This document shows positions 1,154 through 4,653 of a stretch of 40,250 nt of DNA, piece after piece. Each line of letters opens with the position of its first letter. Positions within the stretch are counted from its first letter, which is position 1. A program made the translations under genes and the position numbers. Below the pieces are notes generated by a model. The model was not told the origin of the DNA. It was given only the letters and a program-made list of their open reading frames with translations, and did no database searches. Source of the DNA: a virus (Duplodnaviria; Caudoviricetes); the IMG/VR virus record IMGVR_UViG_3300024284_000010, positions 1-40,250 of that record; one strand, 5' to 3'.

Positions 1154-1693
1154 TTACCTTTTGGTCACATTGTAACCATATTCATTCAAGAATTCTATGT
1201 AAAATTTTATGCGATCTTCTACTCGTTGGCCTGCACAATGCTTAGTAGACCATAATTCTAAATTCTCTATTCGATTATCATCTCGTATGCCATTGATATG
1301 ATGAATCGTTTCCCCTTTACGAATAGGTCTTCCTAAATGTTCGCTCATTACCCAAATATGTTCTTTTATTCTATGATCTTTTCTAGCGTTTGGGTGTCCT
1401 TTTCGTGAAATTATAGCATATCCGTTACCATCATAATGTCTACAAGTTAAACTAGTTTTTCTAGCATCTCCCACTTTTAAATCTAAAGGTATACCATATT
1501 TTTTTCTTTGCTTTATTAACTGTCTTTTTTTCTCTATTTCATAAAGGACAAGATTGTTTTTATACCTTTCTCTTGTTTTTCTGTTTTGACATATTTTGCA
1601 ATATGAATTGTAACCAGCTTTATGTCTGCTACATTTATGAAATTGACTTGTTTCTTTTTCTTCTTTACACAAACGACATATTTTTAAATTCAT
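1154..1693 (-). CDS. Free-standing HNH homing endonuclease with N-terminal Cys zinc finger
   Basis: CRLC...CKIC zinc finger and EHIWVMSEHLGRPIRKGETIHHINGIRDDNRIENLEL HNH motif. Start set at ATG 1693 behind GAGAGG. Confidence 0.9.
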   Translation of the reverse strand: MNLKICRLCKEEKETSQFHKCSRHKAGYNSYCKICQNRKTRERYKNNLVLYEIEKKRQLIKQRKKYGIPLDLKVGDARKTSLTCRHYDGNGYAIISRKGHPNARKDHRIKEHIWVMSEHLGRPIRKGETIHHINGIRDDNRIENLELWSTKHCAGQRVEDRIKFYIEFLNEYGYNVTKR

Positions 1694-1736
1694 GGTAACC
1701 TCTCTTTTCAGAAAGGTTACCACATATGGTATTAAA

Positions 1737-2857: not shown

Positions 2858-4653
2858 CTATAATGCTACTTGAAGCGTGCAACGTAAGTTGACGATCCAA
2901 GATGTGTTAGTGATGTTGAATACTTGAGCCATTTTCCAACCTGCTGTTTGGTAAAGACGCAATCTTGGCGACGCAATTTCTGGCGGCGCGTAGATGAATT
3001 GAGCGGAATAACCGTCCAAGTCCACCATGTCATATGACTCTTGCCCTGGGATAAAGATGTTATAAACATCCTGACCATTTGCAGAAGCCGCAACGCTGAT
3101 AGAACCAACTGAAGACAGCAAGAAACGGATGTTTCTAATTGTTCCCCATTCGGCTTGAAGCAAGTTTGCAGTATTTGCATACTGAGCCACGTTCTGGAAG
3201 CCTACCATTTGGTCTAAGTCAGCACTAAGGTTAGTGTGAGTTAAGCCAAAGAAGCAAGTTCTTACAGGTGCTGTACCGAATTTGTCTTCGCCTTCAATCA
3301 AGTCCATAATGAATTGCGCGTTGGCAGTTCTTAACAAACGAACGGCTTTAGAGCAATCCAGAGGGCTGATATTAGTAGGATTATCGCCATTTGTGCCCGC
3401 TGTGCAATTTATAGGCGGTGCACCCGCTTCCATCATACTTCTAGCAAGCTGATCTTCTGTTTCACGAAGTGACTGCCCAAGTGTGCTCACAGCACTATTT
3501 AGGACAGGATCTTCGTTGATCAACATTCATATCTGTTACTTAATGACCTAATTTTCATTAGGCGCATAGCTCATTTCTGGCTATGTCTATATGTTTCCAT
3601 ATAGCTCAGAGTACCGCTTCACCTTTCGGTGCCTACCCGCTTTACTCGTTCACGCTGGACAATAATTTCGTTTCATGTTACAATAACGTCAAACACTCAT
3701 AAACATAGGAGTTTTATGACTAATACCCGTCTTTCTAAATACACCAGAAAAGAATATTCCCCGACCCATCTTGCATATTTTGCAGGGATTGTAGATGGTG
3801 AAGGTTGTATTCATATTGGTTACTACTTTAATAAAACCCAAAATCGAAGCGTCTACCATTCTCTTATACAAATTACAAGTACAGATATATGCTTGATAGA
3901 CTGGATTACAAATATATTTGGGGGTAATTCCTCTGTTTATACTGACGCTCAAACACCTAAAAACTCCACTCTCAAACCTTATAGTTGGAAAGCAAGCGGA
4001 GAAAGACTGACACATCTTTGTGAATTGCTTATTCCTTATGCCATCATAAAGAAAGACCAACTCCAAATAATGCTTGAGTTTAGAAGAACTTTTCAGGATC
4101 AACATGAACCTAAAAAGGGACAACAAGGGATTCAACCAATAACTCAGGAGCTTATTGATTATCGCCATAGTCTTCTTGTTAAACTTAGAAGTCTTCATTG
4201 TCGTAAAGGTGTCCATAAAACTGTTACTATTCCTTGCGCCTTGTCTTCTTCGCCTTAACGCGGTCAGAGTTCCAAGTCAATTAGGGCTGGTTTATAGCAG
4301 GCAATGTTACCTACCTGCTCTTGAAGGATAATGTAAGAACCATCATATTCTTACACCTTCAAGAAGATTGGCATGGCTTATGCAGCTAGTAACCAATCTA
4401 TTCTTGCATCAATGTCAAGGGCTGTCAGCTGTTGCGCTGGAGGGTCTACAATTCCATTACCCAAAGGTATTGGAGCGGTTAGCAAGTTCTGATAACGTCT
4501 ACGTCTCAGAATATCGCCAGCTTGTTGGTCCATACTTATAGGGTAGCCCATAGTCGTATGAATCAAGTCTGGCATAGGACGAGCAAGTAACTTCATGGAC
4601 AACTGTTGTTGTACCGCTGGAGGCAAAATGCTTGTAGTTGTGGGACCTGACAT
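2858..4653 (-). CDS. Major capsid protein (N4-gp56-like), three exons: join(4653..4392, 4343..4313, 3527..2858), 320 aa
   Basis: Exons of 262+31+670 nt give 963 nt in one open frame reading ...LTALDIDARIDW-YGSYIILQEQV-MLINEDPVLN...EGEDKFGTAPVR..., as expected for N4-gp56-type capsids. Follows portal and scaffold. Confidence 0.9.
3656..3684 (+). promoter_or_regulatory. Sigma70-type promoter for the LAGLIDADG gene
   Basis: TGGACA-N17-TACAAT with TG extended -10, 31 nt upstream of the ATG. Confidence 0.55.
3716..4258 (+). CDS. Intron-encoded single-motif LAGLIDADG homing endonuclease, antisense to the intron
   Basis: LAYFAGIVDGEGCI motif and LLIPYAIIKKDQ; AGGAG RBS before ATG 3716; inserted in the P6 region. 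Confidence 0.9.
   Translation: MTNTRLSKYTRKEYSPTHLAYFAGIVDGEGCIHIGYYFNKTQNRSVYHSLIQITSTDICLIDWITNIFGGNSSVYTDAQTPKNSTLKPYSWKASGERLTHLCELLIPYAIIKKDQLQIMLEFRRTFQDQHEPKKGQQGIQPITQELIDYRHSLLVKLRSLHCRKGVHKTVTIPCALSSSP
4344..4391 (-). ncRNA. 48-nt core-less group-I-like mini-intron in the MCP gene
   Basis: Follows an exon U and ends in G; P1 AGAUUGGU/GCCAAUCU; P10 AGCCAU/AUGGUU; two in-frame UAA codons; removal recreates the UAU (Tyr) codon. Confidence 0.8.

Follow-up and report, generated by a model that had tools for sequence, protein, structure and literature searches.

How can an essential phage gene be expressed when its reading frame is closed by an insert of only 48 nt, and what would remove that insert? 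The question is raised by the major capsid protein (MCP) gene of the window, which is the whole stretch of 40,250 nt analyzed here, a phage contig of 40 kb on which terminase-like, portal and capsid genes are found. According to matching records, the protein belongs to the N4-gp56 major capsid protein family. The nearest cultured phages reach an MCP identity of only about 25%, and in the genome collection this capsid clade is matched only by two short contigs (L232, L233), both from one uncultured Legionellaceae MAG. A free-standing HNH endonuclease ORF lies two genes downstream of the capsid gene (window 1154-1723, minus strand; PF13392, E 1.1e-10). The capsid gene itself is laid out as follows.

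4653-4392, minus strand: MCP exon 1, 262 nt; the closing 8 nt (4399-4392) form the 5' strand of the mini-intron P1 and end in U
4391-4344, minus strand: core-less mini-intron, 48 nt
4343-4313, minus strand: MCP exon 2, 31 nt, encoding YGSYIILQEQV with the end codons split; the closing 7 nt form the 5' strand of the partner P1
4312-3528, minus strand: full group I-type partner intron, 785 nt
3527-2858, minus strand: MCP exon 3, 670 nt

Joined, the three exons encode an MCP of 320 amino acids that reads DW-YGSYIILQEQV-ML. When the 48-nt insert is retained, two in-frame UAA codons are met and translation ends after DWLLAA. A preliminary description of this DNA had reported the broken frame and its repair by removal of the insert, and had added that skipping of exon 2 would shift the frame; the 320-residue product bears out the former and the exon lengths in the window confirm the latter. 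It had also considered that intact homologues might carry 16 extra residues here, or that the insert might be an assembly artefact. Intact MCP homologues are 319-320 amino acids long and read IDWYGTY.ILQEQVML, with no added residues at the insert site. Moreover, the 48-nt insert is neither chance nor an assembly error, because 31 non-redundant genes, the window included, carry an insert of 36-51 nt at this same site. In one DNA run (X1), possibly the source of the sequence, the stretch lies on a single contig with zero differences, and two others (X2 and X3) contain contigs lacking both inserts, which diverge from the window at 4392. Stop-codon read-through was ruled out, since 29 of the 61 inserts of this kind described below are not multiples of three and homologues have no extra residues.

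A recurrent class of inserts with group I splice-site guides

The elements recognized in and around the mini-intron of the window are the following.

4378-4373, minus strand: P10 guide strand, pairing with the first 6 nt of exon 2
4372-4365, minus strand: internal guide sequence (3' strand of P1), of which a G pairs with the exon-1 U
4364-4356, minus strand: tether strand (helix X), pairing with exon 2 at about 4327-4320 and abutting the partner P1
4355-4347, minus strand: helix Y strand, pairing with exon 2 at 4340-4332; the terminal G (4344) lies in the hairpin loop
4392-4378, minus strand: Leu-Leu-Ala-Ala-stop of the unspliced frame (predicted ssrA-like tag), in the P1 loop

The splice-site signals of group I introns that had been read in the insert are all present: an exon-terminal U, a P1 of 8 bp with a U.G pair at the junction, a P10 of 6 bp, and a terminal G. 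The likeness formerly seen between the 3' ends of the mini-intron and the full intron proved superficial. The motif [AG]G[UC]AA[CU]A occurs in 172 of 176 full introns and in none of 61 mini-introns, and the GUAAG of the window mini-intron pairs with exon 2 and varies together with it.

Protein and pattern scans gathered 473 loci, the protein-query scans contributing the best 80 of 405, 245, 610 and 238 matches, chosen on the C-terminal exon. With the window added, a capsid gene was present in 438 of 474 loci; 328 were unique, falling in four clades that are 33-55% identical. Locus L195, the window's own contig, was merged with the window. Spliced alignment divided the inserts into two size classes, 28-79 nt and at least 196 nt, with a few odd calls. 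The short class comprises 61 mini-introns in 58 of the 328 unique genes sampled; these genes are related, and the counts given here are of non-independent events. The mini-introns occupy four sites, named by codon and phase.

Site 88.1: 31 mini-introns
Site 90.0: 27 mini-introns
Site 106.0: 2 mini-introns
Site 116.0: 1 mini-intron

Introns are concentrated in the MCP gene, a hotspot in which more than 20 sites of insertion were counted across loci L004-L470. Two short inserts (L211 at 102.0 and L130 at 317.1) were alignment errors and were excluded from the count, as was a 44-nt insert at codon 101 of L402, which has no P1 or P10 in a gene otherwise free of introns and of core matches.

The unspliced frame stops early in all 61 mini-introns, and their lengths span all three phases. 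P1 has at least 6 bp with the U.G pair at the junction in 61 of 61, and P10 at least 4 bp in 58. The second position of P10 at site 88.1 is G-C in 20 cases and A-U in 11, with no mismatch, and at site 90.0 P10 covaries through four pair types with a single mismatch. Among 30 genes at site 88.1 there are 28 distinct mini-introns, in which all helices are kept by compensatory changes, and the exon 2 peptide is constant over 22 DNA variants. The main spliced aligner carried a small bonus for the U/G boundary; in a control run without it, protein alignment kept the U/...G boundary in 31 of 31 mini-introns at site 88.1. At the phase-0 sites (30 mini-introns) the boundary slides by 1-2 nt under protein alignment alone, because the third codon base is free, and the U/G assignment there rests on the P1/P10 register. 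The alignment of homologous MCP genes proposed earlier thus yields short U/...G inserts with covarying P10 that recur at four sites. No spliced copy of a mini-bearing gene was found among the intron-less loci, of which the closest was 88% identical. The mini-introns are a real and recurrent class under selection. Inserts of 28-79 nt make capsid genes seem broken to annotation pipelines.

The statement that the insert has no room for P3-P8 or a P7 holds for the whole class: at lengths of 28-79 nt, none of the 61 is matched by the core HMMs and none contains a P7-like motif. The mini-intron appears to work as a group I splice substrate, but it fails the core criterion by which group I introns are defined, and so is not itself a group I intron.

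Removal by proteins, that is by a nuclease and a ligase, or skipping of the insert by ribosome hopping, must be weighed at this point. The region is predicted to form long hairpins, and the reading frame meets a stop codon shortly past the junction, a feature shared with the bypassing of T4 gene 60. Bypassing of this type, however, needs matched take-off and landing codons and no split codon, whereas in the window the conserved Tyr codon is split and the 3' end lacks a Trp codon that would match. Removal at site 88.1 joins that split codon, which a hop could not achieve, and the lengths fall in all three phases. In bulge-helix-bulge introns a 4-bp helix is flanked by two 3-nt bulges, one for each junction; the predicted fold has no such element at these positions, where the 5' junction marks the end of a helix and the 3' junction falls within a hairpin loop. 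The U.G wobble, the P10 register and the terminal G are, moreover, specific to group I splicing. Proteins or hopping are accordingly considered very unlikely agents.

The inserts might otherwise be dead remnants in defective genomes, or assembly artefacts, that are never removed. Deletion remnants are made conceivable by full introns found at mini sites, one at 88.1 (L057) and one at 90.0, in tandem with an intron at 98.2 (L137). This explanation is the least probable of those considered, because the diverse mini-introns at 88.1 retain their helices, exon 2 remains in frame and conserved, the pattern recurs at four sites, and the contig of run X1 agrees with the window throughout the stretch.

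The downstream partner intron and the predicted tether helix

The reading that we favor, with a probability of roughly three in four, is that the mini-intron is excised from the capsid mRNA by the tethered ribozyme of the complete intron 31 nt downstream. The helices of this partner intron were annotated by hand.

4302-4296, minus strand: guide
4290-4284/3638-3632, minus strand: P3
4278-4273/4243-4238, minus strand: P4
3649-3643/3613-3608, minus strand: P7
3631-3620, minus strand: P8
3604-3587, minus strand: P9

P1, P10 and the terminal G are present in the partner, and its P7 has the bulge and a G-C pair. HMMs built from 175 other capsid introns match it in nhmmer searches with E values of 4.5e-24 and 6.1e-15, and it is their only core match in the 40-kb window. 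The Rfam model RF00028 has no match in the window, and gives only a weak 26.4 bits for the L057 intron against a gathering score of 50; the partner core is split by a long ORF. Four weak Rfam matches were dismissed as chance. Partners can be compact (198-206 nt in L040 and L019). Introns of 274-350 nt at site 98.2 (L004, L029, L031, L046, L054, L070) have A+T-rich inserts of about 100-150 nt in core loops, possibly small ORFs or decayed endonuclease genes.

A core is found downstream wherever it can be sought. The next intron is complete on the contig for 58 mini-introns, and the core model matches that intron in 58 of 58, which bears on the earlier question whether mini-introns always co-occur with a full group I intron; for the remaining three, the start of the partner is visible. 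In relatives the partner may lie up to 168 nt from the mini-intron, and is therefore not always adjacent. Co-occurrence was counted in 275 genes covered over most of their length, taken from the protein-query samples with the best 80 matches per query. All 33 mini genes in these samples have a full intron downstream, none of the 214 genes lacking a downstream full intron has a mini-intron, and 28 genes of the same coverage have the downstream intron alone. Pattern scans that set no partner requirement also yielded no mini-intron without a partner. In clade A, the mini-intron and the 98.2 intron are gained or lost together, scattered over the MCP tree. The mini-intron takes 21 changes for 22 rows on this tree, and 490 of 500 shuffles are as low; clade A mini-introns are thus no more clustered than shuffles, so the link to the partner is more than shared descent. 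Within clades C and D, by comparison, an intron at 98.2 is frequently present by itself, which indicates that the dependence runs in one direction. Core matches outside the MCP gene, sought in 2.1 Mb of flanks, numbered 19, and every one fell at or within an MCP end or a truncated MCP gene.

The preliminary description had overlooked a second element, a tether helix between the tail of the mini-intron and the downstream exon. The segment 4410-4285 of the window is predicted to fold as three abutting hairpins, formed by the mini P1, the mini tail with exon 2, and the partner P1 (-45.1 kcal/mol, z -4.97; 0 of 200 shuffles equally stable). Helix X at site 88.1 is kept by compensatory changes (at one position C-G 22, A-U 5, G-C 1), and helix Y is formed in 30 of 30 with differing sequences. 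No tail sequence is conserved between mini sites.

In a scan of the first 13 tail bases against up to 300 nt of downstream exon, with the first full intron as target, the best tail helix ended 5-10 nt before the partner 5' splice site in 52 of 58 mini-introns, against 1.25 expected from shuffled tails. Three mini-introns were omitted from this count, one with an extra intron inside exon 2 (L213) and two on contigs that end inside the partner (L196, L150). The same spacing holds in 9 of 10 cases in which the partner is distant (39-168 nt), and the tethers of L221 and L231 covary with a site 168 nt away. Mini-introns at site 90.0 are tethered to partners at six sites: 98.2, 100.2, 103.0, 122.0, 124.0 and 146.0. 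The best helix lies elsewhere in 6 of the 58. For two of these six (L226, L296; site 100.2) the tether, examined by eye, ends 14 nt upstream, beside an extended partner P1 of about 14 nt. In a differently windowed scan, the best 13-nt helix of the window mini-intron lay 268 nt beyond the partner site, and 7 others of 60 were missed.

The duplex energy of the tail averages -15.1 when it pairs with the own exon 2, compared with -10.9 for swapped exons and -8.6 for intron-less alleles, and the full tail of the window mini-intron gives -19.0 with its own exon 2 against means of -9.3 for swapped exons and -10.0 for intron-less alleles. The own exon is best or tied against every intron-less allele in 20 of 30 cases, and among swapped exons in just 14 of 30.

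Three genes have two mini-introns each, at 106.0 (L154, L226) or 116.0 (L158) in addition, and each is tethered to its own downstream full intron. In L213 a further full intron lies 14 nt into the 31-nt exon 2, between mini-intron and partner; the tether can therefore form only after this intron has been spliced out.

These observations bear on where the catalytic core may come from. A freely diffusing excised group I RNA, from the partner or from another core, could remove the mini-intron in trans, the helix between tail and exon merely protecting or presenting the splice sites. Engineered group I ribozymes do excise inserts in trans (PMC4094466), and the loss of a stop tag from the partners, described below, is compatible with partner-first removal. 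A free enzyme, however, would need no tether, and the tether follows the P1 of one partner across six partner sites; in the protein-query samples (best 80 matches per query), moreover, genes lacking a downstream core contain no mini-introns. The tether favors a core acting in cis or still bound over a freely diffusing one, and the trans route appears unlikely.

A mini-intron that excises itself with structure lent by the exon is less likely still than removal by proteins or hopping. The 63-75-nt Phialophora rRNA inserts share P1, P10 and a pairing of mid-intron with 3' exon (PMC3160393), but are drawn there with a P7 of their own and end in U. The present mini-introns have 0 of 61 P7-like motifs, are as short as 28 nt, share no tail between sites and always stand upstream of a full core.

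The covariation of P10 and tail, the downstream intron and the partner-tracking tether thus support the earlier proposal that the mini-intron is a non-autonomous satellite intron using the neighboring core, as far as comparison of sequences can tell. In excision by the tethered partner, base pairing of the tether would hold the mini-intron against the partner intron. The mini P1, the tether hairpin and the partner P1 would follow one another 0-1 nt apart, and then a linker would lead to P3. The standard order in group I introns is P1-P2-P2.1; the hairpins here resemble it, such that either P1 could dock in a single core. Helix Y, near the terminal G, may substitute for P9.0. In engineered precursors a core situated at just one end supports accurate splicing with any duplex beside the terminal G (PMC11417360), and in tandem constructs the second intron used a distal 5' splice site (PMC10136302).

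Stop tag, possible order of removal and likely spread

The peptide at the end of the unspliced frame, likewise overlooked before, may inform on the order of removal. An Ala-Ala-stop ends this frame in 52 of 61 mini-introns but in only 2 of 57 partners; among independent full introns it is found in 63 of the 80 located at or beyond codon 70 and in 0 of the 39 located before it. With Val-Ala included, 56 of 61 mini-introns are covered. The background is low: Ala-Ala precedes 19 of 6968 stops in the wrong frame, and none of 206 real capsid proteins ends in it. The tag of the mini-introns may fall within the P1 loop or the tail, or may be read in a different frame of the exon that follows, and such varied locations suggest selection on the peptide. 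At site 146.0 a control within one site is available, in which the intron of L229, not a partner, is tagged, while those of L221 and L231, which are partners, are untagged. The first in-frame stop lies more than 35 codons in for 7 of 57 partners versus 1 of 80 other introns.

C-terminal Ala-Ala is described as the chief ClpXP determinant of the ssrA tag (PMC7652416), and the protein made from unspliced RNA, ending in Leu-Leu-Ala-Ala, is predicted to be degraded by ClpXP. Early in-frame stops in phage introns are already known (PMC3073962, PMC3984707); no paper on a peptide tag encoded by intron read-through was found in the open-access literature searched. The tag suggests a quality control for truncated capsid protein that is built in, and the fact that partner introns have lost the tag would be a readout of splicing order at the level of sequence. 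Because partners have lost the tag and keep the frame open longer, ribosomes would rarely encounter an unspliced partner once the mini-intron has been removed, and removal would be joint or partner-first. The contrast between mini-introns and partners suggests that both are removed in a coupled manner.

Two orders may be envisaged for such coupled removal. We lean, tentatively and at rather less than even odds, towards a partner-first relay. The partner would self-splice and remain bound to the ligated exons by its guide; its 3'-terminal G-OH would attack the 5' splice site of the mini-intron; exon 1 would then attack at the terminal G of the mini-intron, and partner and mini-intron would be released as one fused RNA. 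Such a relay would explain the tag pattern and why the mini-intron is not stranded. Partner P10 helices are not longer than those of other introns (mean 3.5 versus 3.4 bp), and hence lend it no special support. The second choice, judged only slightly less probable, is removal of the mini-intron first with free GTP, followed by fast self-splicing of the partner.

Mobility may be supplied by the partner as well. Inside the partner intron of the window lies one further ORF.

3629-4258, plus strand: LAGLIDADG-like homing endonuclease ORF, antisense inside the partner (PF00961, E 0.00079, 20.7 bits against a cut-off of 23.1)

An intron endonuclease antisense to the capsid transcript is also seen in many 98.2 introns, and homologues of the window ORF occur in other MCP introns. 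The window endonuclease groups with the enzymes of 98.2 introns that have no mini-intron, so the window mini-intron probably rides along by co-conversion. In other lineages the relation may be closer. At a threshold of 60% or more, the endonuclease of the full intron at 88.1 (L057) falls in one cluster with the enzymes of eight 98.2 partners; the identity is 65-86% in the six pairs listed. An identity of 91% links the enzyme of the 122.0 intron in L222 to that of the 98.2 intron in L118, two genes that have nothing but the mini-intron at 90.0 in common; near-identical enzymes at different sites that have a mini site in common may cut at the site of the mini-intron. Mini-intron and partner likely spread jointly by homing. 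The full introns at the mini sites of L057 and L137 suggest that the upstream core was lost once a tether had formed.

Relation to known systems

To our knowledge, natural group I introns have been treated as self-contained, each carrying the core that excises it. In the capsid genes analyzed here, an essential and highly expressed phage gene appears to depend on one ribozyme for two excisions. If true, this would be a natural multi-substrate splicing ribozyme and a model for introns shedding catalysis onto another RNA. With a compact partner the whole system takes about 300 nt, and programmable excision might be designed simply by following the rule that the tethers obey.

A fuller picture can be drawn, which may well fail in one of its parts and is offered with some reserve: natural satellite introns, composed of guides and a programmable tether, would be removed by relay and fused to the excised intron; they would have arisen at four or more sites, with tethers rewired to new partners, and would mark the cut site of the partner endonuclease in some lineages. 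Were it correct, catalysis and mobility would both be outsourced, and these introns would offer a living model of the split between substrate and enzyme that gave rise to spliceosomal introns. No natural precedent for such core-less introns was found in the open-access literature searched.

The nearest comparison is with the self-splicing group I introns of phage protein genes (RF00028; LittleE capsid gene, PMC3706429; crAss-like MCP, PMC7886860), which likewise have an exon-terminal U in P1, a P10 and a terminal G. Phage group I introns also show an early in-frame stop, several inserts per capsid gene, a short middle exon and a homing endonuclease, here located in the partner; Twort orf142, as described in PMC10136302, has three introns and a 23-nt exon. 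Each of the known phage introns, however, owns a P3-P9 core, whereas the mini-intron has none and pairs with the exon beside the P1 of another intron. Multi-intron phage genes are known (PMC3706429, PMC11878797, PMC7886860), with no core-less member in these accounts.

The small 'degenerate' group I introns PaSSU of Phialophora (63-75 nt, fungal nuclear SSU rDNA; PMC3160393) resemble the mini-introns in being tiny and in having the U.G pair in P1, the P10 and a pairing between mid-intron and 3' exon. The last is represented in the window by helices X and Y; a P7 of its own, a terminal U and a location in rRNA are not found in the window mini-intron. The Phialophora introns lie in rRNA, are drawn with their own P7, have a terminal U, are claimed to be active by themselves, and are described in that source without partner ribozyme, tether or tag.

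In spliceozymes, trans excision-splicing and one-ended cis-splicing ribozymes (PMC4094466, PMC11417360), a core acts on foreign splice sites, as proposed here. These systems are artificial and the ribozyme brings the guide, whereas here the substrate would bring P1, P10 and the tether, and the core would also be that of a functional intron. ORF-less phage introns that undergo collaborative or trans homing (PMC3984707) are comparable in that an element without an endonuclease spreads by means of its neighbor's; as described there, mobility alone is borrowed, while here catalysis would be borrowed too. Finally, the truncated product ends in a hydrophobic residue followed by Ala-Ala, as do ssrA/ClpXP degrons (PMC7652416). 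The ssrA tag is added by tmRNA, whereas the tag of the mini-intron is hard-coded in the read-through frame of the intron itself.
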